64,000 nt of DNA from a bacterium (GCA_030427205.1 JAUHXC010000036.1:16185-80184), one strand, 5' to 3'; positions 2,122 through 13,717 are shown, counted from the stretch's first letter. Notes: generated by a model from the letters alone, not told the origin. Made by a program: numbers and translations.

Positions 2122-2387
2122 GTTGTTCCTCCGGGGTGTGCCGTGTGTCGATCGAGTGACATGGCTCATGAGCCCTCGGGCGGTCGAACGTCAACCGGGA
2201 AACGCTTTTTCTACGTGTTTTCAGGTATTTGTTCCATTTGGGGTGTGCCGCATGCGGGTCGATGGCGTTCGCGGGTCGCCCGAATCCGGCTCATGTGGGC
2301 CCGGCTTCAGATCTCGATGTATCGAACGGCCGTTCTGGCGCATCATGTTCGAGCGCGCCCGCAGCGGCGACGCCCCGGAGTCCCCCC

Positions 2388-3941
2388 ATGTCGGTCGAAT
2401 CGTCGATTCACACCCTGCGCCGCCGCGGCCGACGGGGCCGGTCCGCCGAGGGGCCGTCGGGTTCACCCGCCGGTCACCCCGACACCGCGCCGTCGAACCT
2501 GCTCATCGTCTCCGATCTGCACCTGGGCGGGCCGCTGCGGCCGGTGCCCACCGCCGACCCCGACGGGCCGGTGCGGGTGGGCTTCGGCGCGCTGAAGCAG
2601 GTGGTGCGGCTCGACCGGGCGCTGGCGCGCTTCATCGACCACCACCGCGAGAACGGGCCCCGCGGCGGCGGGGGGTGGACGCTGGTCTTCAACGGCGACA
2701 CCGTCGACTTCTTGCACATGGATCTGCGCCCCGACGGGGAGGACGCGCCGGCGCCCGACGGCGACGAGCAGCTCTACGGGCTGTCGTTCGCCGCCCACCG
2801 CGCGGTGTGGAAGATGAAGGTGATCGCCGCCTATCACCGGCATACCTTCCGGGCGCTGGCCCGGTTCGTCGAGGCCGGCCATCGGGTGGTGCTGGTGGTG
2901 GGCAATCACGACGTCGACCTGTGGTTCGGCGACGTGCGCGCGGCCTTCGTCGAGCAGGTGGCGGCCCACGCCGACGACGCCGAGGCGGCGCGCGCGGGGG
3001 TGCGCTTCGAGCCGTGGTTCTTCTACGAGCCGGGGCGGGCGTATATCGAGCACGGCCATCGCTTCGACCCGTTCGCGACTTTCCCCGACCCGCTGGCGCC
3101 GCTGGCCACCGACCGCGAGCGTTACCTGGCGCCCAACTTCGGCCACTTCGGGCTGCGCTACTTCGCCAACCGCATCCGCAGCTTCCCGATCCACGACCTC
3201 GACCAGCAGGGGCTCGGCGATCTGTGGCGCTGGATCAAGCGGCACTCGCCGCGCTACGTGGCCCGCGCCGCGTGGCAGGTCGTCGCCTTCTTGTGGCACT
3301 ACGGCCGGGCGACGGCCCGCGACCGCTTCAGCCGGCGACGGCGGGAGGCGGCGACCCGGGCCCGGCGGCGGGCGCGGCTGCGTAAGTTCGCCGCGCGCTA
3401 TGGCATGCCCCTGGGGCGCATATTGGCCCTCGACGGGCTGCGCCGGCCGCACATCGGGCAGAACGTCTTCCGGCTGGCCCACGGGCTGATGCTCGACCGG
3501 GCGCTGCTGCTCGCGGCGGTGCTGCTCGGGCTCGCGGCGGGCCTCTCGGCGGACGACGCCGAGACCGGCACCTGGGTCGTGCTCGGCGTGCTCGGCGGCA
3601 GCGCGCTGGCGTGGTGGCAGCTCGATCGGACCCGGCCCTCGGCGGACATCCACCCCCAGCTGGGGCGCATCGCCAAGCGGGTGGGCCGGCTGAGCGGCGC
3701 GCCGATCGTGGTCTTCGGCCATACCCATCGGCCGGTGCTGCGGCGGCTGGGGCGCACCCGCTGGCTCAACCCGGGCGCCTGGGAGCACGTGCCGCGCCAC
3801 CGCCCGCACCCGATCGACGCGCCCTGCGACTGCCCGGCGCGCTTCGGCATGATCGACGGCCCCGCCGAGCGCCCTCAGGCCCACCTGCAGCGCTGGTGCG
3901 TGCGCCGCGGCGCGCCCCACGAGGTGGAAGAGCAGGCCTGA
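2388..3941 (+). CDS. calcineurin-like metallophosphoesterase with two predicted TM helices inserted between catalytic motifs (possible class III cNMP phosphodiesterase-type enzyme)
   Basis: Motifs LLIVSDLHLG, FNGDTVDF, VVGNHDVD, IEHGHRFD and VVFGHTHRP. Hydrophobic segments ALLLAAVLLGLAAGL and WVVLGVLGGSALAWW sit between the last two motifs. ATG 2388 with GGAG 8 nt upstream. The first 53 codons of the track ORF are judged 5' overextension. Confidence 0.8.
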   Translation: MSVESSIHTLRRRGRRGRSAEGPSGSPAGHPDTAPSNLLIVSDLHLGGPLRPVPTADPDGPVRVGFGALKQVVRLDRALARFIDHHRENGPRGGGGWTLVFNGDTVDFLHMDLRPDGEDAPAPDGDEQLYGLSFAAHRAVWKMKVIAAYHRHTFRALARFVEAGHRVVLVVGNHDVDLWFGDVRAAFVEQVAAHADDAEAARAGVRFEPWFFYEPGRAYIEHGHRFDPFATFPDPLAPLATDRERYLAPNFGHFGLRYFANRIRSFPIHDLDQQGLGDLWRWIKRHSPRYVARAAWQVVAFLWHYGRATARDRFSRRRREAATRARRRARLRKFAARYGMPLGRILALDGLRRPHIGQNVFRLAHGLMLDRALLLAAVLLGLAAGLSADDAETGTWVVLGVLGGSALAWWQLDRTRPSADIHPQLGRIAKRVGRLSGAPIVVFGHTHRPVLRRLGRTRWLNPGAWEHVPRHRPHPIDAPCDCPARFGMIDGPAERPQAHLQRWCVRRGAPHEVEEQA

Positions 3942-3978: not shown

Positions 3979-5034
3979 TCAGTCGCTGCGGCGCACGATC
4001 TCCAGGGCCTGCTCGAGCAGCGCCTGCATCTCGGCCCGCTGCAGCGCGCTGAACTGGGTCGGCGAGTAGGTCAGCGCCGCCAGTTCGAAGCCGCCGTCCT
4101 CGACGGTGCGCAGCATCGACGAGGGCTGCGAGCGGTCGACGAGGCGCAGCACGTCGTAGGTCTCGACGGCGTGGTGCACGCCTTTGACCTGCACCGGCCC
4201 GCGGTGGCTGCACTCGACGACGTCTTTGACCAGGTGGTAGGTCGAGCCGCTGAGGGTGATGCCGCCGGGCTCGGCGAGGCCTTCGAGGCGCGAGGCGACG
4301 TTCACCGGGCTGCCGACGATGGTGTAGTCCATGCGCGCGGCCGAGCCGAAGTTGCCCACGGTGCAGTGGCCGGTGTTGATGCCGATGCGGGTGCGCAGCG
4401 GGCGGTCGATGCCCAGCGCGCGCCACGTCCCGGCGAGCTCGACGCTCGCCGACTGCATCTCGAGGGCCATGCGCACGCAGCGCACCGCCTCTTCGGCGGG
4501 GTCGGAGTCGTCGCGGTCGCCGAAGAAGACCATCACCGCGTCGCCGATGAACTTGTCGATCGTGCCGCCCCAGCGGTCGGCGATCTGCGCCATGCGGTCG
4601 AGGTAGGTATTGAGCACGGCCGAGAGCGTCTCGGCCTCGACGGTATCGGTCAGCTCGGTGAAGCCCACCAGGTCGGAGAAGAAGACCGTCAGCCGCCGCC
4701 GGCGGGTCGCGGTGGTCGTCGCCTGGATGCCGCCGCCGACGATCAGGTCGAAGAGCTGCGCCGACAGGTAGCGCTTCATGTTGTCGAGCAGCCCGCTGAT
4801 GCGCTCGTTGCGGGCCGACAGCTCGTTCTCGATCTCGGTGCTGTGCTCGAGCACCGTCTGCGACAGCAGGCTGAGGTCGGTGAAGTCCTCGCGCAGCTTG
4901 TCGACGAGCGGCGTCAGCTCGGTGACGATGGCGGCCTGTTGTGGGGAGGCGGCGTCGGCGAGGGCGGCGAGCAGGGCCTCGATCCGGTCGAGATCGGCCG
5001 GTTCGAGGCCGCCGGAGGACAGCGAATCGAACAT
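3979..5034 (-). CDS. class III adenylate/guanylate cyclase (CHD domain) with N-terminal coiled-coil region
   Basis: LTVFFSDLVGFTELT, GDAVMVFFG and RIGINTGHCTVGNFG are hallmark cyclase-homology motifs. Start MFDSLSS at 5034 (aa 26 of the track ORF). Confidence 0.85.
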   Translation of the reverse strand: MFDSLSSGGLEPADLDRIEALLAALADAASPQQAAIVTELTPLVDKLREDFTDLSLLSQTVLEHSTEIENELSARNERISGLLDNMKRYLSAQLFDLIVGGGIQATTTATRRRRLTVFFSDLVGFTELTDTVEAETLSAVLNTYLDRMAQIADRWGGTIDKFIGDAVMVFFGDRDDSDPAEEAVRCVRMALEMQSASVELAGTWRALGIDRPLRTRIGINTGHCTVGNFGSAARMDYTIVGSPVNVASRLEGLAEPGGITLSGSTYHLVKDVVECSHRGPVQVKGVHHAVETYDVLRLVDRSQPSSMLRTVEDGGFELAALTYSPTQFSALQRAEMQALLEQALEIVRRSD

Positions 5035-5182
5035 GGCCCGAGCATCGTCGATCGCCGCGTGGTGGACAAGAACCGCCTGCACCGGCGCCCGCCGGACGCT
5101 GCATCCCACGGCGACCCGAGACTTCGCCGGATGTCACATTGCACGGTTCGTGGTAGATCGGAGTGCCGTTGGAGGAGGCCCC

Positions 5183-5701
5183 ATGCTGTCGGACCAGGCG
5201 CCGAGCGTCGGCGCGCGCATCATCACGCTGCGCTGTGATGCCGGGTTGCTCGTCAACCGCCACGCCCGCAGCCACAGCGCGGCGGAGTATCTGGCGGCGG
5301 TGGGCTCGACTGCCGGCCCCGACAGCGCCATGGCCGCCCGCGAGCTCTCCGCGGCGCTGTTCGAAGTCTTCGAGTGGGTCCATCATCGCGCGCCGACGGG
5401 CGCGGTCGTCGTCGGGCTGCGCGCGCTCGACGGGGGCGTGCGCATCGTGGTCGAGCTGCCCTGCGCGCCGGCCGCGGTGCCCGCCTGCCTGGCGTCGATC
5501 GCGCCGAGCGACGACGGCCGCGACCCGCTCGTCGACCCCGAGCCGGGGGATGGCCTGCGCGAGCTGGCGGCGGTGCACGGGGTGAAGCTCGGGGCGGCGG
5601 CGGTCGAGGGCGGCGTGCGGCTCGTCCTGCACGTGCCGCTCGGCGAGTCCGGCGAGCAGCGCGCGGACGGCGAGCGGGGGGAGGCCACCGGTGAGCGCTG
5701 A
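5183..5701 (+). CDS. GHKL/HATPase-like anti-sigma-factor-type protein with a degenerate N-box (kinase-like paralog)
   Basis: GGAGGAGG RBS 5 nt upstream of ATG 5183. Pattern AALFEVFEWVHHRAPTGAVVVGLRALDGGVRIVVELP parallels the NELVENAIKFG...VAVIVGL...LVMRVSN arrangement of the downstream kinase, but the conserved Asn is absent. Stop overlaps the next start. Confidence 0.6.
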   Translation: MLSDQAPSVGARIITLRCDAGLLVNRHARSHSAAEYLAAVGSTAGPDSAMAARELSAALFEVFEWVHHRAPTGAVVVGLRALDGGVRIVVELPCAPAAVPACLASIAPSDDGRDPLVDPEPGDGLRELAAVHGVKLGAAAVEGGVRLVLHVPLGESGEQRADGERGEATGER

Positions 5702-6872
5702 TTCCGGCCCGAAGGGCGGCTACACCGTCAGCTTCGACGAGAACGATCAGGTGGTCCGGCTGGCGGGGGTGCTGCGCCCGGCGCACGCCGCGGCGCTCGG
5801 GCCGCTCGTCGACTGCCTGACCGCCGCCGCCGACGCGGTGCGCGGGCGGCTCTACGTCAACCTCAAGCAGCTGCGGCACATGAGCTTCGCCGGGCACCGG
5901 GTCTTCACCGCGACGCTCGGCCGGCTGCTCGAGGCCCACCCGCGCATGGAGATCACGCTGGTGACCTCGTCGGTGATGCCCTGGGCCAACCGGCGCTTCG
6001 CCCCCTTCGCCGCGCGTTGGCCGCGGCTGACGGTCGAGCAGTACGACCGGGCGTTCTACCCGGGGCAGGGGGTCATCGAGAGCGACGGCCTGCTGCCGGT
6101 GCTGCGGGCCCAGACGAGCGTGATCTGGAAGCACGAGAAGCCGCTGCTCGAACGCCACGGGCTGCGGCCCGGCGCCCGGGTGGCCGACATCTGCTGCGGC
6201 ATCGGCGACTTCGCGATGCTGGTGTGGCGCAACTTCGCGCCCGAGCGGCTCGTCGCCGTCGACCACCATCGGCCGTTTCTCGACTATGCCCGCACGGTGG
6301 CCCGCGACTTCGGCGCCGACCAGATCGAGTATCAGGTGGGCGACGCCGCCTCGCTGCTGCTGCCCGACGCCGGCTTCGACTTCGTCACCTCGCGGCTGGC
6401 GCTGCAGATCTTCGATCGGCCGGCGGAGATCCTCGCCGAGCTCAAGCGCATCTGCCGCCCCGGCGGGCGGGTCTACGTGACCAACGAGATGATGGGTCAC
6501 ATCTACGCCTACCCCAAGGACGGGCCGGTGACCTGGGCCTATCGGCTCATCCCCGAGATGGCGGCGAGCCTGGGCATGGACGTCAACTTCGGGCCCAAGG
6601 CGCGGGCCTATCTCGAGGACGTCGGCTTCGTCGACGTGAAGGTCGACCGGCTCGAGGTCAATAACCTCAACTCCGACCTGAGCGACTTCGCCGCGGTGGC
6701 CGCGGGCTGGCGCGATTACGTCGTCGGCGAGGTGGCGACGGCCACCGGCCAGGCCCCCGAGACCATCGAGCGGCTGCGCTCGGCGCTGGAGGACTTCTTG
6801 TATGTCGTCGAGAACCGCCGCGGCTTCGCCACGTGGCCGATCTACGTGGCCTCGGGCACCCGCCCGAGCTGA
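5691..6872 (+). CDS. fusion protein: N-terminal STAS/anti-sigma-antagonist-like domain + class I SAM-dependent methyltransferase
   Basis: GTG 5691 overlaps upstream stop (5699-5701), with GGGGGAGG RBS. SAM motif I VADICCGIGDFAMLV and post-I LKRICRPGGRVYVT. The first ~100 aa are STAS-like (YTVSFDENDQVVRLAGVL...ITLVTSS). Confidence 0.8.
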   Translation: MSADSGPKGGYTVSFDENDQVVRLAGVLRPAHAAALGPLVDCLTAAADAVRGRLYVNLKQLRHMSFAGHRVFTATLGRLLEAHPRMEITLVTSSVMPWANRRFAPFAARWPRLTVEQYDRAFYPGQGVIESDGLLPVLRAQTSVIWKHEKPLLERHGLRPGARVADICCGIGDFAMLVWRNFAPERLVAVDHHRPFLDYARTVARDFGADQIEYQVGDAASLLLPDAGFDFVTSRLALQIFDRPAEILAELKRICRPGGRVYVTNEMMGHIYAYPKDGPVTWAYRLIPEMAASLGMDVNFGPKARAYLEDVGFVDVKVDRLEVNNLNSDLSDFAAVAAGWRDYVVGEVATATGQAPETIERLRSALEDFLYVVENRRGFATWPIYVASGTRPS

Positions 6873-6926
6873 CCGACCCTTCGAGGAACCGATGACCCGC
6901 GCCGCCCCCCACCCACCGAGTCGCCG

Positions 6927-9296
6927 ATGCTGAAGGCCACCCGCCGTTTTCGCACCAAGCTCTTTCTCGTCGCCGGGCTGGGCGTCGTCATCGGGCTGTC
7001 GGCCAGCACGTTCGTGGCCCGCTACGGGGTCAACGTGCTCAGCCACGACGCGACGACCGAGCTGGAGGAGGGCCTGGGGCGGGCCACCCGCGAGTATCTG
7101 ACCAACCACGTCGCCGACGCGGCCACCCGCACGGGCTACATGCTCGGGCGGGCCCAGACCGACCTGCAGATCGCCGCGGGCATCGCCCAGGGCATCATCG
7201 ACCGCGGCGACAGCCTCGACCCGGTGCACGACGCGATCTCGCGGCTGCCCGGCATCGAGGACCGCCTGCGCTACGACGCCGAGGGCAACTGGTACCAGAA
7301 CCCCGACGACGAGCCGATGGCGGTGGCGGTCTGGGGTTATCTGCTCGGCGAGAAGCCGGCCGACGGCGGCCCGCCGCCGGTGCGGCCCGAGGTGCTCGAG
7401 GCGGTGCGCGAGACGGCGATCTACGATCTGATCGTGCCGCCGTTTCAGCGGAAGGGCAGCAGCAACCTGCAGGTGTACTTCGTCGGGCCCGAGGAGGCGC
7501 CCTTCCTGCGCATCGCCCCCTGGGCGCCGGCGGCGGCGCAGGCCGACAAGAAGTACCCCGGCCACAATCAGAAGCCGTTCTGGTCGTTCTTCTTCCCGAC
7601 GCTGGTCGACAGCTGGATGCAGTGGGTCGAGGCCGAGGGCGGGCCCGACGCCCGCCAGAGCCAGGTGACGGTGCTGCCGCCCTACGAGGACGCCGGCGGC
7701 GGCGGGCTGGTGACGACGTTCTTCCACCCGCTGTGGAGCCCCGACCGCAAGACCTTCGCCGGCGCGGTGGGCATCGACCTGACGCTCAACCAGATCGTCG
7801 ACTACATCAAGGACCAGAAGCTCTACGACTCGGGCTTCGCCTTCCTCGCGCAGTCGAGCGGCAACGTGCTGGCGGTCAACGCCGACGGCGAGCGGCTGCT
7901 GGGGCTGCGCCAGGCCAAGGGCGCCATCGGCGGCGGGGTCGACGTGCTCAGCCGCAGCCTCAGCGCCAGCGCCCACCGCTCGGTCGCCGAGCTGCAGCTG
8001 CCCCAGAGGGACGGGGCGACCTACACCGAGATCGGGATCGACGGCCAGATCCACGTGGTGGTGCTGCAGCGTATGGCGCCCTTCGAGATCTGGCCCGGTC
8101 AGCTGGGCATCGGCCCCGAGCACTGGACCCTGGGGCTGGTGGTGCCCGCCCGCGAGATCTTCGAGTCGCTGACCAAGGCCCGGGCGGCGATCGACGAGAG
8201 CGTCACGAGCATCTTCGCCCAGCAGACGGTGATCACCCTGCTGACGCTGCTGTCGGTGCTGCTCGGCATCTCGGTGCTCAGCCGGCGCATGACCGTCTCG
8301 CTCGACGAGCTGTCCGACGCGGCGCGGGCGATGAAGGGCAAGAACTACGACGTCGAGGTGCAGGTGCGCACCGCGGACGAGATCGGCGAGCTGGCGTTCG
8401 CCTTCAACGCGATGGCCGCCGAGATCAGGACCTACACCAACAACCTCGAAGAGCTGGTGCGTCAGCGCACCGCCGAGCTGGAGCGGGCCAACAGCGAGAT
8501 CTCGCTGCTCAACGAGCGGCTCAAGGAAGAGAACCTGCGCATGGGCGCCGAGCTGGCCGTCGCCCGCCGCCTGCAGCTGATGGTGCTGCCGGCGGAGTCG
8601 GAGCTGGCGAGCATCGCCGGGCTCGACATCGCCGGCTACATGGAGCCCGCCGACGAGGTGGGCGGCGACTACTACGACGTCTTGCAGGGCACCGGCGGGG
8701 TCAAGATCGGCATCGGCGACGTCACCGGCCACGGCCTCGAGAGCGGGGTCTTGATGATCATGCTGCAGGCGGCGGTGCGCACCCTGGTGCTCGCCGAGGA
8801 GCGGGACCCCGAGCGCTTCATGTCGATCATCAACAAGGCGGTCTACCAGAACATCCAGCGCACGGCGATCGACCGCTCGCTGACGCTGAGCCTGATCGAC
8901 TACGACGACGGCGTGCTGCAGCTCGTCGGGCAGCACGAGGAGGCCATCGTCGTGCGGGCCTCGGGCGCGGTCGAGCGCATCGACACCATGGCCCTCGGGC
9001 TGCCGGTGGGGCTCGACTTCGAGATCGACGACTTCCTCGGGCGCCTCGAGCTGCCGTTGGCGCCGGGGGATACGGTGCTGCTGTATACCGACGGCATCAC
9101 CGAGGCGGAGAACCCCGACGGCGAGCAGTACGGCCTCGACCGGCTGTGCGAGGCCGCCCGGCGGCACCACGCCTCTCCGGCGGCCGCGATCAAGGACGCC
9201 GTGATCGGCGACGTGGAGCGGTTCATCAATTTCCAGAAGGTCTTCGACGACATCACCCTGGTGGTGATCAAGCGCGAAGCAGAGGAGGCGGCGTGA
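6927..9296 (+). CDS. membrane sensor phosphatase: TM - periplasmic sensor domain - TM - HAMP - PP2C (SiaA/RsbU-like)
   Basis: N-terminal TM LFLVAGLGVVIGLSAS and second TM ITLLTLLSVLLGISVL. HAMP (DEIGELAFAFNAMAAEI). PP2C motifs GGDYYDV, GIGDVTGHG and YTDGITEAENPDG. Confidence 0.85.
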   Translation: MLKATRRFRTKLFLVAGLGVVIGLSASTFVARYGVNVLSHDATTELEEGLGRATREYLTNHVADAATRTGYMLGRAQTDLQIAAGIAQGIIDRGDSLDPVHDAISRLPGIEDRLRYDAEGNWYQNPDDEPMAVAVWGYLLGEKPADGGPPPVRPEVLEAVRETAIYDLIVPPFQRKGSSNLQVYFVGPEEAPFLRIAPWAPAAAQADKKYPGHNQKPFWSFFFPTLVDSWMQWVEAEGGPDARQSQVTVLPPYEDAGGGGLVTTFFHPLWSPDRKTFAGAVGIDLTLNQIVDYIKDQKLYDSGFAFLAQSSGNVLAVNADGERLLGLRQAKGAIGGGVDVLSRSLSASAHRSVAELQLPQRDGATYTEIGIDGQIHVVVLQRMAPFEIWPGQLGIGPEHWTLGLVVPAREIFESLTKARAAIDESVTSIFAQQTVITLLTLLSVLLGISVLSRRMTVSLDELSDAARAMKGKNYDVEVQVRTADEIGELAFAFNAMAAEIRTYTNNLEELVRQRTAELERANSEISLLNERLKEENLRMGAELAVARRLQLMVLPAESELASIAGLDIAGYMEPADEVGGDYYDVLQGTGGVKIGIGDVTGHGLESGVLMIMLQAAVRTLVLAEERDPERFMSIINKAVYQNIQRTAIDRSLTLSLIDYDDGVLQLVGQHEEAIVVRASGAVERIDTMALGLPVGLDFEIDDFLGRLELPLAPGDTVLLYTDGITEAENPDGEQYGLDRLCEAARRHHASPAAAIKDAVIGDVERFINFQKVFDDITLVVIKREAEEAA

Positions 9297-9820
9297 ACAT
9301 CGTCATCGGTGATTATCTCGACGATCTGACCCTCGATACGCAGCTCGAGCTCAACTTCCACCCCGAAGAGTTCCCGGTGCACTGGCGGCGGGCCGCGCTG
9401 ACCGCCGACTTCGCCGCGAGCTGGTTCGGCAACGTCGGCGACGGGGTGGCCGACGCGATCAGCTACGCGCTCAACGAGCTGGTGGAGAACGCCATCAAGT
9501 TCGGCACCGCCGGCCGGGTGGCGGTGATCGTGGGCCTCGCCGGCGACGAGCTGGTGATGCGGGTCTCCAACCGGCTGCCGCACAAGGACGTGCCCGCCCT
9601 GCGCGCGCTGCTCGAAGAGATGGTCAGCGAGGATCCGTGGGAGCTCATCGTCAAGCGGGTGGAGGCCAACGCCGCCGATCCGGAGAGCAGCCGCTCGGGG
9701 CTGGGATTTCTGACGCTGCTGACCGACTATGACGCCCGGCTCGGCTGGCGCGTGGCCCACGACACCGAGACCCACGCGTGCCTGCACACCCTCGTACGCC
9801 TCAAGACGAATGAAGGATGA
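9293..9820 (+). CDS. SiaB/RsbW-like small GHKL serine kinase (anti-sigma-factor-type HATPase)
   Basis: GTG 9293 after GAGGAGG, overlapping the upstream stop. Canonical N-box ALNELVENAIKFG. 175 aa. Confidence 0.75.
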   Translation: MNIVIGDYLDDLTLDTQLELNFHPEEFPVHWRRAALTADFAASWFGNVGDGVADAISYALNELVENAIKFGTAGRVAVIVGLAGDELVMRVSNRLPHKDVPALRALLEEMVSEDPWELIVKRVEANAADPESSRSGLGFLTLLTDYDARLGWRVAHDTETHACLHTLVRLKTNEG

Positions 9821-10178
9821 CCCGATGAGCAGCCCCCTGGAGATCAAGGACGCCGGTTACCGGGTCTGGTACGACGCCGCCCAGCAGACCGTGTGGTTCG
9901 AGGGCACCCTGCGCCTCAGCACCGGCGAGTTCGCCCCGATCTCGGGCCTGCTCACGACGGTCATCGAGGCGGCCCCCGCCGCGCTGACCCTCGACATGCG
10001 CGGGCTGCGCTTCCTCAACAGCTCGGGCATCAACATGCTCTACAAGTTCGCGATCTCGCTGCGAAAGCGCGGCGACATCCAGCTCGTCGTGCGCGCCGCG
10101 AAGGACATCGGCTGGCAGACGAAGTCGCTGCCCAACCTCAAGCGCTTCCTGCCGCGGGTCGAGATCGAGGTCGGCTGA
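9810..10178 (+). CDS. SiaC-like (DUF1987/STAS-fold) small partner-switch target protein
   Basis: ATG 9810 overlaps the kinase stop (9818-9820); alternative ATG at 9825. About 120 aa with LRFLNSSGINMLYKF, which I recall as resembling the SiaC family. Strong GC3 bias. Confidence 0.6.
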   Translation: MKDDPMSSPLEIKDAGYRVWYDAAQQTVWFEGTLRLSTGEFAPISGLLTTVIEAAPAALTLDMRGLRFLNSSGINMLYKFAISLRKRGDIQLVVRAAKDIGWQTKSLPNLKRFLPRVEIEVG

Positions 10179-10229
10179 TCGCGGTCGGCCGATCGCGGTC
10201 GGCCGATCGAGGCCGCGCGGCCCCGGCGC
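10179..10229. terminator. intergenic direct repeat + GC palindrome between convergent genes (possible bidirectional terminator)
   Basis: gatcgcggtcggcc is repeated twice in tandem (10177-10204), followed by the perfect palindrome ggccgcgcggcc (10211-10222). No U-tract, so the call is weak. Confidence 0.25.
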
Positions 10230-13200
10230 TCAGTCGGGGCAGACGTCGGCGACGCCCGCCGGGCCCGGTGAGGCGGCCGCGCCGGCCAGGTTGCGCACGA
10301 ACTGGCCGATGACCGCCTCTTCGGCGGCGTCGGCGTAGCTGCCGCCGTTCATCAACAGCGTGCCGCCGCAGCGCGTCACCCGCAGCGTGCTGACGATCTC
10401 GCCGCCGACGGGGCTCTGGCTGGTGGTCACCACCCGCCCCGGCGGCTGCCCGTCGAAGCGCGGCCAGACGAAGTAGGCCGGGCCGCGCTGACCGACGATG
10501 GCCGCCGGCAGGCTGCGCACGATCGGATCACCCAGCCCGTCGGGCTGCACGTCGAAGCTCTGCAAGCCGTCGAGGCCGCCGCCGCCGACGGTCATCGGCA
10601 GCCAGCCCCAGGGGTCGGGCGCGCCGAGGCGCAGCGTGAAGTCGAGGTCGTAGCCGGTCGCGAGCAGCGCCGCGCCGTCGAACTCGGTGACCAGCGCGCC
10701 GCCGCCGCGCACGAACGCGTCGAGCGCCGGCTCGGCGTCGGCGGGCAGCGCGGCCCAGGCGTCCGACCAGCGGCCGAGGAAGATCACGTCGAAGCGGGCG
10801 AGGTCGCCGAGGTCGTCTGCGAGCAGCTCGACGGCGAAGCCGCTGTCGGCCAGCGGCGTCGCCAGCTGCGCCGGCCCCAGCAGGCCCACCCGGCCCAGCG
10901 GCGTCTGCCGCGGCGGCCGGACCCAGACCTGCCAGCCGGTCTCCTCGCCGACGGCGCCGGTGCCGCAGCGGGGCTCGCCGTCGAAGAGGCCCCACGCGGT
11001 CGGGCTGGCCGGCGCCTCGAGGCCGCGGCCGTCGAAGTCGACGGCGAAGTCGTCCATCGACCCGCAGGCGTCCTCGCCTTCGAGCCAGTCGCCGTCGGGG
11101 TGCAGCCGCCCCTGGCCCCGCGCCCGCACCGCGCCGGTGGACAGGTCGCGGCGGATGGCCGGCCGCTCGAGGGCGCCGGCCCCGTCGGCCTCGCTGAAGC
11201 AGCTGTCCCGGTCGGACCCGGCGGTGATCGTGCGGTACCAGGGCACGTCGTAGAAGACGATGTCCACCGCCGGGCCCTCGGCGTTCACCGCGCCGCAGGT
11301 GAAGCGGATGTCGTGGCGCAGCCCCAGCGGGCGCAGGCCCGGCCAGACGCCGCTGCGGGCCTCGGTGGGCAGCGGGCCCTGCAGATCGGTGTGCCACGCC
11401 GTGCGCTGGTCGGGCGGCGGCGCCCCGCGGCTGTTGGCCACCAGCGCCCAGCCGCCGCCGTCGGTGGCCATGTCGCACCACACGCTGTGCGGCGCGTCGT
11501 CGGGGTCCACCAACAGGTAGACGCCGGACTCGCCGCCCGCCCGCCGGGCGTCCTCGCAGCTGGGGTAGACCTCGCACGAGGCGACCTCGTCCACCGCGCC
11601 GTCGCAGTCGTTGTCGACGGCGTCGCACAGCTCGGCCGCCGGCGCGTCGGGCACGGCGTCGCAGCGCGCGCCGCCATTGTCGTCGCAGACCCACACCGCC
11701 TCGCGGGCGCAGCCGCCGACCCCGACGCTGCAGGGCTCGCCCAGCGGGAAGTCCTCGTCGGCGGCGCCGTCGCAGTCCTGGTCTTCGCCGTCGCAGAGCT
11801 CGTCGGTCGGCTGGCCGGGCTCGCCGACGCAGACCAGCGCGCCGCCGTCGCCGCAGGCCTGCCGGCCGTCCCGGGCGCAGAGCCCGATACCGATGGCGCA
11901 GCGCCGGCCGACGCCCTCGACCTCGTCGACGTCGCCGTCGCAGTCGTCATCGACGTCGTTGCACACCTCGACCTGCCGCTCGCCCGGCACGGCGCCGCAC
12001 GTCAGGCCGCCGTTGCCGTCGCAGACGAACTCGCCCCGGGCGCGGCAGGCGCCGACGCCCACCTCGCACGCCGCGCCGAGCGGAAACTCCTCGTCGACGG
12101 CCCCGTCGCAGTCGTTGTCGAGCATGTCGCAGCGCTCGTCCTGCGCCTCGCCGGCCACCGCGTCGCAGACCAGACGCTCGTCGGCGCAGACCCGCTGCCC
12201 CTCGGTCTGGCACTCGCCGATACCGGCCGAGCACGGGCTGCCCACCGCGAAGCCCTCGTCGGTGGTGCCGTCGCAGTCGTCGTCGATGCCGTTGCACACC
12301 TCCCGCACCGGCGCCCCCGGCTCGGCGGAGCAGACCGCCGGCCCGTCGTCGCCGCAGATGCCTTCGCCGACCCGCAGGCAGGCGCCGACGCCCACCTCGC
12401 ACGGGTCGCCGACCAGCAGCCCTTCGTCGGGCGCGCCGTCGCAGTCGTCGTCGACGCCGTTGCACACCTCGTCCCGCGGGTCGCCGGGCACCGCGCCGCA
12501 GACCACCGTGTCGCGCGGTCCGCAGACGGTCACCCCGTCGGTGCGGCAGGCGCCCTCGCCCTCTTCGCACGGCTCGCCGAGCGCGAAGCCCTCGTCGATC
12601 AGGCCGTCGCAGTCGTCGTCGCCGCCGTTGCACGCCTCGTCCTGCCGCGGCTGCTCGTCGAGCGCGCCGTCGCAGTCGTCGTCGAGCCCGTTGCAGACCT
12701 CGGCCGTGGGCGCGCCGGGGGTCGCGTCGCACGCCCCCACGCCGTCGATGCAGCGGATGGTGCCTTCGCGGGCGCAGCCGCCGTCGCCCGCGGTGCACAG
12801 CGCGCCGACGCCGAAGACCTCGTCGACCGCGCCATCGCAGTCGTCGTCGAGCCCGTTGCAGACCTCGTCGGTGGCCGGGGTATCCGGGGCGCAGACCGGC
12901 GCGCCGGCCTCGCAGATCCGACGCCCGGCCGCGCAGACCCCCGGCAGCCCGGTGCCGCACGCCCGCCCCACGTCGGTGGGCATCTCGTCCACCGGGCCGT
13001 CGCAGTCGTCGTCGACGCCGTTGCAGACCTCTTCGCCGGGCAGGCCCGCCTCGGCGCCGCACACCATGCGCCCGCCCTGGCACAGCGCCTGCCCGTCGGA
13101 GCGGCAGGCGCCGGCGCCCGCGACGCACGGGGTCGGCGCGATGTCTTCGTCGGTGGCCCCGTCGCAGTCGTCGTCGACGCCGTTGCACATCTCGGGGGGC

Positions 13201-13625
13201 ATCTCTCCGGCGATGGGCGTGCAGACCAGCCGCATCGTCGGGCCGTCGCAGCGGCGGATCCCGGGCGCCCGGCAGGTGCCGCGGATGAACTCGCACTCGT
13301 CGCCGACGCCCTCGACGTCTTCGTCGATGCGCCCGTCGCAGTCCTGGTCGGCGTCGTCGCAGACCTCCGGATCGGCCGCGCACGGTTCGAAGACGCCGTC
13401 GACGCACCGCTGGCTGCCGGTGCAGCCGTCTTCGACGACGCACGGCCGGCTCTGCCCCGCGCGGCACGGCGGATCACCCATCGCGTCGGGTCCTTCGTCG
13501 ACGACCGGCGCGCCGCCGTCGGCCGCGGGGCCCTGATCGGGCTCGCAGGCGACGAGCGCCACGCCCAGTATCAAGGCGATTCGGAGCGGATGGTCCACGC
13601 CTCGAAGATGGATCGGTTCGTACAT
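10230..13625 (-). CDS. giant lipoprotein: about 17 MopE-type putative metal-binding Cys repeats (CNGxDDDCDGxxDE) + fibrinogen-related domain + C-terminal domain
   Basis: Lipobox ALVAC after the n-region. The repeat ...C.G.G.C...G...C...P....P..EVCNGVDDDCDG.(V/P)DE recurs about 17 times. GVYLLVDPDDAPHSVWCDMATDGGGWALV is the fibrinogen-C signature. Start ATG 13625 or GTG 13646. Confidence 0.85.
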   Translation of the reverse strand: MYEPIHLRGVDHPLRIALILGVALVACEPDQGPAADGGAPVVDEGPDAMGDPPCRAGQSRPCVVEDGCTGSQRCVDGVFEPCAADPEVCDDADQDCDGRIDEDVEGVGDECEFIRGTCRAPGIRRCDGPTMRLVCTPIAGEMPPEMCNGVDDDCDGATDEDIAPTPCVAGAGACRSDGQALCQGGRMVCGAEAGLPGEEVCNGVDDDCDGPVDEMPTDVGRACGTGLPGVCAAGRRICEAGAPVCAPDTPATDEVCNGLDDDCDGAVDEVFGVGALCTAGDGGCAREGTIRCIDGVGACDATPGAPTAEVCNGLDDDCDGALDEQPRQDEACNGGDDDCDGLIDEGFALGEPCEEGEGACRTDGVTVCGPRDTVVCGAVPGDPRDEVCNGVDDDCDGAPDEGLLVGDPCEVGVGACLRVGEGICGDDGPAVCSAEPGAPVREVCNGIDDDCDGTTDEGFAVGSPCSAGIGECQTEGQRVCADERLVCDAVAGEAQDERCDMLDNDCDGAVDEEFPLGAACEVGVGACRARGEFVCDGNGGLTCGAVPGERQVEVCNDVDDDCDGDVDEVEGVGRRCAIGIGLCARDGRQACGDGGALVCVGEPGQPTDELCDGEDQDCDGAADEDFPLGEPCSVGVGGCAREAVWVCDDNGGARCDAVPDAPAAELCDAVDNDCDGAVDEVASCEVYPSCEDARRAGGESGVYLLVDPDDAPHSVWCDMATDGGGWALVANSRGAPPPDQRTAWHTDLQGPLPTEARSGVWPGLRPLGLRHDIRFTCGAVNAEGPAVDIVFYDVPWYRTITAGSDRDSCFSEADGAGALERPAIRRDLSTGAVRARGQGRLHPDGDWLEGEDACGSMDDFAVDFDGRGLEAPASPTAWGLFDGEPRCGTGAVGEETGWQVWVRPPRQTPLGRVGLLGPAQLATPLADSGFAVELLADDLGDLARFDVIFLGRWSDAWAALPADAEPALDAFVRGGGALVTEFDGAALLATGYDLDFTLRLGAPDPWGWLPMTVGGGGLDGLQSFDVQPDGLGDPIVRSLPAAIVGQRGPAYFVWPRFDGQPPGRVVTTSQSPVGGEIVSTLRVTRCGGTLLMNGGSYADAAEEAVIGQFVRNLAGAAASPGPAGVADVCPD

Positions 13626-13717
13626 TTCGGTCAAAGAATTACACACATGGTGACATTGTCGGGGGTGTCAGGGTGCGCCATGGGCCGCCCGCCGCTGCCC
13701 GCCTGCGTCCGCAGTCG

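Follow-up and report, generated by a model that had tools for sequence, protein, structure and literature searches.

A widespread gene cassette of the slr1658/slr1659 partner-switch type with a degenerate second pair and a STAS-like–methyltransferase fusion

Described partner switches and the g1–g5 cassette

The known outputs of bacterial partner switches are sigma factors and, more recently, diguanylate cyclases. The subject of this work is a five-gene cassette, g1–g5, located on the plus strand at positions 5183–10178 of a 64,000-nucleotide (nt) stretch of bacterial DNA (GCA_030427205.1, JAUHXC010000036.1:16185-80184), which is referred to below as the window, and the class III nucleotide cyclase gene divergent from it. 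The cassette is widespread and misannotated, and it probably represents partner switching of the slr1658/slr1659 type with new features. In the composite model preferred here, with a probability of about 0.55, a partner switch has a nucleotide cyclase as its output and a methyltransferase as a second arm. A methyltransferase carried on a decoy antagonist would be a new class of output, and an active pair combined with a dead pair (the latter containing a pseudokinase) in a single operon would be a new circuit design.

Control of a nucleotide cyclase by a STAS-like phosphoprotein is known from HsbR-HsbA-HsbD and from SiaABCD of Pseudomonas aeruginosa; in the latter, SiaC without its phosphate binds the cyclase SiaD and thereby activates it (PMC7647112; PMC8457831). 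The cassette resembles SiaABCD in having a membrane HAMP-PP2C phosphatase, a small putative kinase, a STAS-like predicted phosphoprotein and an adjacent nucleotide cyclase as the likely output, as well as in the position of the acceptor at the N-terminus of helix α2 (LN-T68-SS in SiaC, LN-S71-SG in g5). Unlike in SiaABCD, the cyclase of the window belongs to class III, is not a GGDEF protein and is encoded on the opposite strand, and an additional dead kinase-like protein and a STAS-like–methyltransferase fusion are present. An earlier description of the window made from the sequence alone had proposed a SiaABC-like operon. The partner-switch anatomy holds by analogy, but by family g4 and g5 fall into the slr1658 and slr1659 superfamilies, respectively, and the proteins of the window stay short of the SiaA and SiaB cut-offs and give no match to the SiaC model.

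In the HptB-HsbR-HsbA-HsbD pathway of P. aeruginosa, the phosphorylation state of a STAS antagonist controls a cyclic-nucleotide-forming enzyme by direct binding (PMC6482189). The same type of control is proposed for the cassette, whereas the phosphorelay input to a response-regulator–PP2C–kinase fusion is peculiar to the HptB pathway, which contains neither a methyltransferase nor a duplicated dead pair. The roles of PP2C phosphatase, GHKL kinase and STAS antagonist, known from RsbU-RsbV-RsbW and SpoIIE-SpoIIAA-SpoIIAB, are all represented in the cassette. SpoIIAB is the protein closest to the g1 model in size and fold, and Ser58 of SpoIIAA aligns with Ser71 of g5. Unlike these switches, the cassette has no sigma factor gene in it or near it, its STAS, HATPase_c and HATPase_c_2 scores lie just below the Pfam thresholds, and g4 has an Asn in place of the G1-box Asp.

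In the mycobacterial SigF switch, RsfA is non-phosphorylatable, RsfB is phosphorylatable and the anti-sigma factor is kinase-inactive. Phosphorylatable and non-phosphorylatable STAS proteins thus occur with a GHKL-fold non-kinase binder in one switch, as in the cassette. The SigF switch, unlike the one proposed here, acts on a sigma factor, its non-phosphorylatable antagonist carries no fused enzyme, and only the fold is common to both systems. The antagonists RsfA and RsfB and the anti-sigma factor are named as parts of the network in PMC10950880.

The slr1658/slr1659 pair of Synechocystis sp. PCC 6803 is related to g4 and g5, which score above the cut-offs of the respective families, and both pairs lie beside a nucleotide cyclase gene. 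Unlike the cassette, the Synechocystis locus is not known, from the literature available, to have a dead paralog, a methyltransferase fusion or a dCache-HAMP-PP2C sensor. Cells in which slr1658 is disrupted are reported to be impaired in recovering from iron starvation and to show an about 1000-fold de-repression of pgr5, with ‘no details known’ of the Slr1658 signalling chain. Slr1657, encoded next to slr1658/9, is listed as ‘XXX-GGDEF’ in a review on cyclic dimeric GMP. The Slr1658 phenotype would gain a mechanistic frame in a Sia-like kinase/STAS pair situated beside this GGDEF protein. Our literature searches found no partner switch gating a methyltransferase, in agreement with the sequence-only reading, which had called such wiring undescribed. 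Searches of the literature for the S. meliloti locus tags of the cassette found nothing relevant.

The genes and intervals discussed below are the following (lengths in amino acids, aa):

3979–5109, minus strand: class III cyclase (PF00211), divergent from the cassette
5110–5182, unstranded: spacer separating the divergent cyclase and g1 genes, presumably a promoter region common to both
5183–5701, plus strand: g1, 172 aa, degenerate GHKL-fold protein, paralog of g4
5691–6872, plus strand: g2, 393-aa STAS-like/methyltransferase fusion
6927–9296, plus strand: g3, 789-aa membrane sensor phosphatase
9293–9820, plus strand: g4, 175-aa GHKL-like protein of the slr1658 superfamily, predicted Ser kinase for g5
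9810–10178, plus strand: g5, STAS-like protein of the slr1659 superfamily, 122 aa (117 aa from ATG 9825)

The G+C content of the window is about 70–77% and long spurious open reading frames (ORFs) occur everywhere, so the frames were assigned using a plot of codon-position G+C (GC3). From 5250 to 10200, GC3 is 0.90–1.00 in exactly the frames of the five plus-strand ORFs, and all five co-directional genes given in the sequence-only reading were found where it had placed them. Its stop/start overlaps (5691/5699, 9293/9296 and 9810/9820) are also as described, with a refinement for g5. Ribosome-binding sites precede the starts of g1, g2, g4 and g5. ATG 5183 of g1 is preceded by the Shine-Dalgarno sequence GGAGGAGG. 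The g2 start (GTG 5691) overlaps the g1 stop (5699–5701) by 11 nt and has GGAGG 6 nt upstream, the g4 start (GTG 9293) overlaps the g3 stop (9294–9296) as GTGA and has GAGGAGG upstream, and ATG 9810 of g5 overlaps the g4 stop (9818–9820). ATG 9825 is a possible alternative start of g5, because it has a better, well-spaced Shine-Dalgarno sequence, GAAGGA at 9812–9817, and the N-termini of the orthologs fall near it; g5 may therefore begin 4 nt past the g4 stop instead of overlapping it. The spacing between g2 and g3 is 54 nt. Whichever g5 start holds, g1/g2 and g3/g4/g5 are translationally coupled and operon-packed. A scan for promoter and terminator consensus sequences, including sigma-70, found no sites, such a scan being uninformative at 70% G+C for the present organism.

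The intact pair, the sensor phosphatase and the degenerate pair

Proteins g4 and g5 were assigned as regulators of the slr1658 and slr1659 superfamilies, g4 scoring 122.3 bits with NF047703 over aa 7–168 and g5 scoring 128.1 bits with NF047705 (curated cut-off 100 in both cases). The slr1658 cyanobacterial equivalog NF052618 (105.1 bits, cut-off 200) and the SiaB-family kinase model NF038262 (18.6 bits, cut-off 85) were not reached by g4. Its scores for HATPase_c and HATPase_c_2 were 24.2 and 19.6 bits, against thresholds of 26.4 and 27.4, respectively. In a Pfam scan of the g4 family, 30 of 31 orthologs matched HATPase_c weakly and 27 of 31 matched DUF6272. The N-box (Y58..N61-E62..E65-N66-A..K69-F70) and the Gly box (S135-G-L-G138) are invariant across 79 orthologs, and so is N93, which occupies the position of the GHKL G1-box Asp. 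The word ‘canonical’, applied to g4 as a GHKL Ser kinase in the sequence-only reading, does not fit a protein with a sub-threshold HATPase_c score and an invariant Asn in place of that Asp.

The STAS model PF01740 gave 21.6 bits with g5 (cut-off 22.6) and weak matches in all 31 orthologs. A DUF1987/SiaC-like nature had also been suggested for g5; PF09345 produced no match to the protein of the window at E ≤ 0.1 and matched 18 of the 31 orthologs weakly (best E = 1e-3). Judged by these profiles, the g5 family lies between STAS and SiaC. The stretch F-L-N70-S71-S72-G73-I-N75 (FLNSSGIN) is invariant in 78 orthologs. Its Ser71 (nt 10020–10022), the predicted phospho-acceptor, aligns with the RsfB phospho-site region as well as with the SpoIIAA serine mentioned above, and LN-S71-SG aligns with and resembles the SiaC peptide LLYLN-T68-SSIK. 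Searches of PDB sequences with g4 and g5, both single-sequence and profile, returned nothing significant, neither SiaB nor SiaC, and the g4-family profile found no SiaB chain there at E ≤ 1.

Hydropathy and Pfam analysis of g3 indicated two transmembrane segments, TM1 at aa 12–30 and TM2 at aa 433–453, with a dCache-like periplasmic domain of about 400 aa between them. They are followed by a HAMP domain at aa 450–501 (nt 8274–8429; PF00672, 47.8 bits) and a SpoIIE/PP2C domain at aa 590–783 (nt 8694–9275; PF07228, 135.9 bits). The dCache_1 score of 34 bits is under the threshold in the window, but the domain is called in orthologs. The PP2C catalytic and metal-binding motifs (GGD579, GHG601, TDG721 and DDIT774) are all intact. 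The SiaA equivalog NF038263 scored 110.6 bits against a cut-off of 700 and covered only the HAMP-PP2C half. The architecture previously given for g3, a transmembrane sensor with HAMP and PP2C domains, is borne out. The three proteins g3, g4 and g5 probably form a phospho-switch.

The family alignments used for paralogy and motifs were built from 80 related loci and contain about 80 orthologs per family. BLASTP between single sequences gave E = 0.47 for g1 versus g4, which is not significant, and no alignment for the g2 N-domain versus g5. The paralogs are too divergent for such comparisons to be informative, and family profiles were needed. With hhalign, the g1 family matched the g4 family at 98.0% (E = 2e-13, 126 columns), and the g2 N-domain family matched the g5 family at 98.3% (E = 1.8e-14, 107 columns); the cross-controls gave 0.4% for g1 versus g5 and 3.7% for the g2 N-domain versus g4. 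In addition, phmmer with g5 as the query picked up the N-terminus of g2, at E = 1e-4 to 1e-7, in many loci, and with g4 as the query it matched the ORF in the g1 position of locus L028. The operon thus contains two paralogous GHKL-like/STAS-like pairs, and the slr1658/slr1659-type module has been duplicated within it. To judge by their alignments, the g4/g5 pair keeps the catalytic and acceptor motifs, while the pair of g1 and the g2 N-domain has lost them.

No Pfam or NCBIfam match was found for g1, and the g1 family was likewise matchless in the Pfam scan. The AlphaFold2 model of g1 had a mean predicted local distance difference test value (pLDDT) of 84 and a predicted template modelling score (pTM) of 0.78. 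In a Foldseek search of the PDB, it matched GHKL domains only, the best size-matched one being SpoIIAB (1th8_A) with a template modelling score (TM-score) of 0.67. The helix residues S56, N60, E61 and E64 are kept, the N-box Mg-ligand Asn and the Gly box are lost, and the lid region is shorter. The second kinase-like paralog noted in the sequence-only reading is therefore g1, in degenerate form. Its description as HATPase-like applies at the level of profile and fold only, but not to the ATP/Mg motifs, which are absent from this degenerate g4 copy. On these grounds, g1 is proposed to be a pseudokinase or binding partner with a GHKL fold. Decay of g1 as a pseudogene was rejected in view of a frame GC3 of 0.95–0.98 and a family of at least 335 homologs; g1 lies upstream of g2 in essentially every locus.

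The g1 family, of about 170 aa, is named ‘ubiquinone biosynthesis methyltransferase UbiE’ by NCBI/PGAP (e.g., 7058–7576 of the S. meliloti locus L085) and contains no methyltransferase domain. The name is a propagated misannotation, probably taken over from the neighbouring g2.

The STAS-like, slr1659-like N-domain of g2 spans aa 10–117 (nt 5718–6041). With NF047705 it scored 30.9 bits (E = 2.6e-7, aa 10–113), under the cut-off of 100, as a divergent relative only. The AlphaFold2 model of g2 (pLDDT 90.7) has two domains, the N-terminal one showing the order b-b-a-b-a-b-a-b, a STAS-like topology. PF13466 is carried by close g2 homologs, one of which is labelled ‘MlaB component’ by JGI. The STAS-like character proposed earlier for the first ~100 aa of g2 is confirmed by this topology and by the profile match to g5. 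At the acceptor position the family has N65 followed by the consensus N/H-x-A/G-F (MSFAG in the window) and no Ser. Since the invariant Ser of g5 is replaced across the fusion family, the g2 STAS-like domain is not a canonical phospho-target, and its role as a plausible phosphorylation target, put forward in the sequence-only reading, is abandoned.

The regulatory N-domain of g2 evolves much faster than the methyltransferase domain, with mean pairwise distances of 0.53 and 0.31, respectively. An exhaustive HMMER search with the N-domain alone gave only 31 matches, mostly g2 orthologs or fragments, and revealed no other fusion architectures; the remaining matches were long proteins matched in several stretches, resembling compositional noise. 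In a mirror-tree analysis, all GHKL-like/STAS-like pairs were correlated (r = 0.82–0.97). These data bear on the possibility that g1/g2 and g3/g4/g5 are independent modules sharing an operon, with g1 as a chaperone or accessory protein of a metabolic methyltransferase and no cross-talk. The loss of regulatory motifs in g1 and the g2 N-domain would agree with it, as would the ancient origin of the duplication, indicated by the failure of pairwise BLAST to relate the paralogs significantly. Yet the order g1-g2-g3-g4-g5 is strict across phyla, loci without g3 still keep g1-g2-g4-g5 together (L013, L020 and L021), and all components co-evolve tightly, over the range of r just given. Moreover, no locus has lost g1 or the g2 N-domain, fast as these evolve, and selection for a binding function is therefore indicated. 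We regard the independence of the two modules as very improbable.

The class I S-adenosylmethionine (SAM)-dependent methyltransferase domain of g2 occupies aa 134–393 (nt 6090–6869) and scored 62.1 bits with PF08241 (threshold 21.2). The SAM motif residues D166, G170, G172, D191 and D218 are invariant in 84 g2 homologs. The STAS-like–methyltransferase fusion described earlier is real, ancient and conserved, with more than 570 full-length homologs. In Foldseek, the match of g2 to 3mgg had E = 7e-20 and a TM-score of 0.80, and the top neighbours were small-molecule or natural-product methyltransferases (3mgg, LahSB, RoqN/OxaG, AtmM, GtmA/TmtA, RebM and PMT), so that a small molecule is the most likely substrate by structural similarity of the model. 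The identity of g2 as UbiE/MenG was rejected, with 54.9 bits versus 158 for TIGR01934 and 52.4 versus 216 for the equivalog NF001244. To label g2, and still more g1, as ‘UbiE’ is an annotation artefact; the g1 family should be annotated as a GHKL-fold pseudokinase, and the N-terminus of the g2 family as a STAS-like regulatory domain.

An alternative role of the methyltransferase would be that of a CheR-like feedback or adaptation enzyme acting on g3, g4, g5 or the cyclase, with the STAS-like domain and g1 merely serving for docking. The operon does contain a HAMP-bearing transmembrane sensor, LahSB, which ranks among the closest structural neighbours, methylates the carboxyl group of a peptide, and fusion to a paralog of the pathway phosphoprotein would target g2 to the kinase or phosphatase. 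However, most structural neighbours are small-molecule methyltransferases, g3 has no helices of the methyl-accepting chemotaxis protein type for methylation (its Pfam domains being dCache, HAMP and PP2C only), and the cassette has no CheB-like demethylase. A feedback enzyme of this kind is accordingly judged quite unlikely.

Two further features of g2 were observed. SAM motif I, at 6186–6218 (aa 166–176), reads D-I-C-C-G-I-G-D-F, the usual class I form being DxGxGxG. Of its adjacent cysteines, C168 is invariant across g2 homologs and C169 is present in more than 90%; cofactor binding may perhaps be redox-sensitive. The inter-domain linker YDxxFYPGQ (aa 118–126, nt 6042–6068) is the best-conserved stretch of g2, above both flanking domains. 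D119, F122, Y123 and Q126 are invariant in the 84 homologs, and Y118, P124 and G125 are present in at least 90% of them. The linker may be a lid or docking element.

Neighbouring cyclic-nucleotide enzymes and the proposed mechanism

The cyclase gene of the window (PF00211, 101.2 bits; GC3 frame on the minus strand) encodes the metal-binding Asp residues in FFSDLVGF and IGDAVM and the transition-state Asn and Arg in VNVASR. The substrate-specifying residues are Lys in DKFIGD and Thr in DYTIVG, a pair which we take to indicate a class IIIb adenylate cyclase in the scheme of Linder and Schultz. The gap between the cyclase and g1 is 73 nt if the start is GTG 5109 and about 148 nt if it is Met26 (~5034). 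The cyclase noted by the sequence-only reading as divergent and 150 bp upstream is thus indeed divergent and on the opposite strand, its distance depending on the start. Orthologs with 62–72% identity occupy the same divergent position in loci L004, L005 and L007, and a copy with 45% identity flanks the cassette in L051, from an Acetobacteraceae metagenome-assembled genome (MAG).

The neighbours of the cassette were counted in 77 loci. Directly upstream of g1, a same-strand PAS-like-GGDEF(AGDEF)-EAL gene was found in 30 loci, a small PP2C gene in 13 and a class III cyclase gene in 5, while a class III cyclase gene lay directly downstream of g5 in at least 8. In total, a GGDEF-EAL gene or a class III cyclase gene directly flanked the cassette in about 43 of the 77 loci, class III cyclases accounting for at least 13. 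Pairs of the slr1658/9 type adjoin nucleotide cyclases in cyanobacteria, rhizobia and myxobacteria. The window itself contains no GGDEF gene. The statement that a diguanylate cyclase is lacking is consequently true for the window but misleading for the family, which is usually flanked by GGDEF-EAL or class III cyclase genes.

Because cyclic-nucleotide genes flank about 43 of 77 loci and the GGDEF protein Slr1657 is encoded beside slr1658/9, the cyclase is the likeliest Sia-like output; that the divergent class IIIb adenylate cyclase fulfils this role in the window is put at even odds. The sequence-only reading had named both the methyltransferase and this cyclase as candidate outputs; the methyltransferase would then be an additional arm. 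For a model in which g3/g4/g5 gates g2 as the sole dedicated output and the cyclase or GGDEF-EAL proteins are independent neighbours, it can be noted that g2 is the only enzyme besides the phosphatase in every one of ~80 loci, that about one third of the loci have no adjacent cyclic-nucleotide gene, and that g1/g2 and g3/g4/g5 are translationally coupled within one operon. Nevertheless, the g2 N-domain has no phospho-acceptor and cannot be a direct kinase target, three types of cyclic-nucleotide enzyme flank the cassette in distant lineages, which is hard to explain by chance, and slr1658/9 in Synechocystis are also flanked by a cyclase, with no methyltransferase fusion evident from the order of locus tags. 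We therefore consider the methyltransferase unlikely to be the sole output.

In the preferred composite model, g4 would phosphorylate g5 at Ser71, and g3 would strip the phosphate once a ligand is sensed in the periplasm by its dCache domain. Unphosphorylated g5 would be the active species, binding and modulating the adjacent nucleotide cyclase as SiaC does SiaD. Its target would be the class IIIb adenylate cyclase in the window and GGDEF-EAL or GGDEF proteins in other lineages. The methyltransferase pair is probably a second, phosphorylation-independent arm, in which g1, a binding-only GHKL fold, would hold the STAS-like domain of g2 and set the methyltransferase activity. Since the g2 N-domain is a paralog of g5, the latter could, when unphosphorylated, compete for g1, and the g2 N-domain could act as a non-phosphorylatable pseudo-substrate of g4. 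The phosphorylation state of g5 would then reach the methyltransferase by partner exchange and not by phosphorylation of g2. The coupling of g1/g2 to the switch through such an exchange is a tentative proposal, with the odds somewhat against it.

A more specific version is a two-by-two switch, in which g5 would be read out by exchange between the active kinase g4 and the dead kinase-fold protein g1, and a non-phosphorylatable g5 decoy would be covalently joined to a small-molecule methyltransferase. This version is doubtful as it stands. If it is true, the synthesis of cyclic nucleotides and the SAM-dependent methylation of a metabolite would answer to a single periplasmic signal, and hundreds of species, rhizobial symbionts among them, would carry the first partner switch for which gating of a methyltransferase is shown.

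Several points weigh against the composite model. All interactions and their directions are inferred. The kinase activity of g4 is not assured, because an invariant Asn replaces the adenine-contacting G1-box Asp of GHKL kinases. The g1 of the window is unusually divergent and has lost W-x-H-C and SSALNE, both conserved in more than 90% of its family. Neither the mirror-tree analysis nor partial correlations could assign the two GHKL-like proteins to their STAS-like partners. The link to cyclases is frequent and not universal, as about a third of the loci have no cyclic-nucleotide enzyme beside the cassette. The substrate of the g2 methyltransferase could be a pathway protein. Finally, the effect seen in Synechocystis is on transcription, a hint that there are targets encoded elsewhere.

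Additional genes accompany the cassette in some loci. A small soluble PP2C gene is located on the opposite strand just upstream of it in L001 (3012–4714), L028 (6335–7327), L036 (6461–7465) and about ten other alphaproteobacterial loci. In L001, from Aestuariivirga, this PP2C gene is accompanied by a canonical STAS and HATPase_c_2 pair, which hints at cross-talk between two partner switches. In L002 (11514–14324), from Nannocystis pusilla, a class III cyclase gene comes right after g5 and is followed on the opposite strand by a gene for a Ser/Thr protein kinase with a cyclic nucleoside monophosphate (cNMP)-binding domain, which could be a reader of the cyclase product.

Distribution of the cassette and flanking sequences

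In a scan of ~186,000 species genomes, a relative of g2 was encoded in 413. Among the carriers are Myxococcota (Nannocystis and relatives) and many Alphaproteobacteria, including Mesorhizobium, Rhizobium, Sinorhizobium, Devosia, Aestuariivirga, Parvibaculum and Inquilinus. The g2 fusion was found on pSymB of S. meliloti in 80 plasmid records, and the full cassette is present there as well, in strain 1021 at about 460.6–466 kb. As Mesorhizobium, Rhizobium and S. meliloti pSymB are among the carriers, the model is genetically testable straight away. The order g1-g2-g3-g4-g5 is kept in nearly all of the 80 loci fetched for gene-order comparison, and its recurrence in two phyla argues that the grouping is not a chance arrangement.

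Two kinds of variant were encountered. The Nannocystis MAGs of L013, L020 and L021 show the arrangement g1-g2-g4-g5-cyclase and have a PP2C gene at another place, on the opposite strand. In Inquilinus limosus (L056), only a short stretch matches g3, and the large sensor part may be absent.

A wider conserved neighbourhood was considered and rejected: no neighbour in the window other than the cyclase has homologs in the related loci. Because the cyclase is syntenic in relatives and the other neighbours have no homologs there, the comparison delimits the conserved unit of the present window to 3979–10178, six genes. Among the neighbours searched for in the related loci, no homolog was found of the metallophosphoesterase (2229–3941), the 617-aa protein (316–2169) or the MopE-repeat protein.

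The first of these, at 2229–3941 on the plus strand, is a calcineurin-like metallophosphoesterase gene convergent with the adenylate cyclase gene; a cNMP phosphodiesterase activity is conceivable in principle. On the other side of the cassette, and apparently without any relation to it, lies the minus-strand gene at 10230–13646. Its product, 1138 aa long, combines 12 cysteine repeats of the MopE type (PF11617) with a fibrinogen-like YCDxxxxGGGW domain. Between g5 and this convergent gene lies a 14-nt tandem repeat, GATCGCGGTCGGCC, at 10163–10209 (3.4 copies, 93% matches), which begins in the final codons of g5 and takes up the greater part of the 51 nt between g5 and 10230. Two palindromic cores, CGGCCG and CGATCG, are contained in the repeat, which may serve as a terminator in both directions or as a binding site for a protein.

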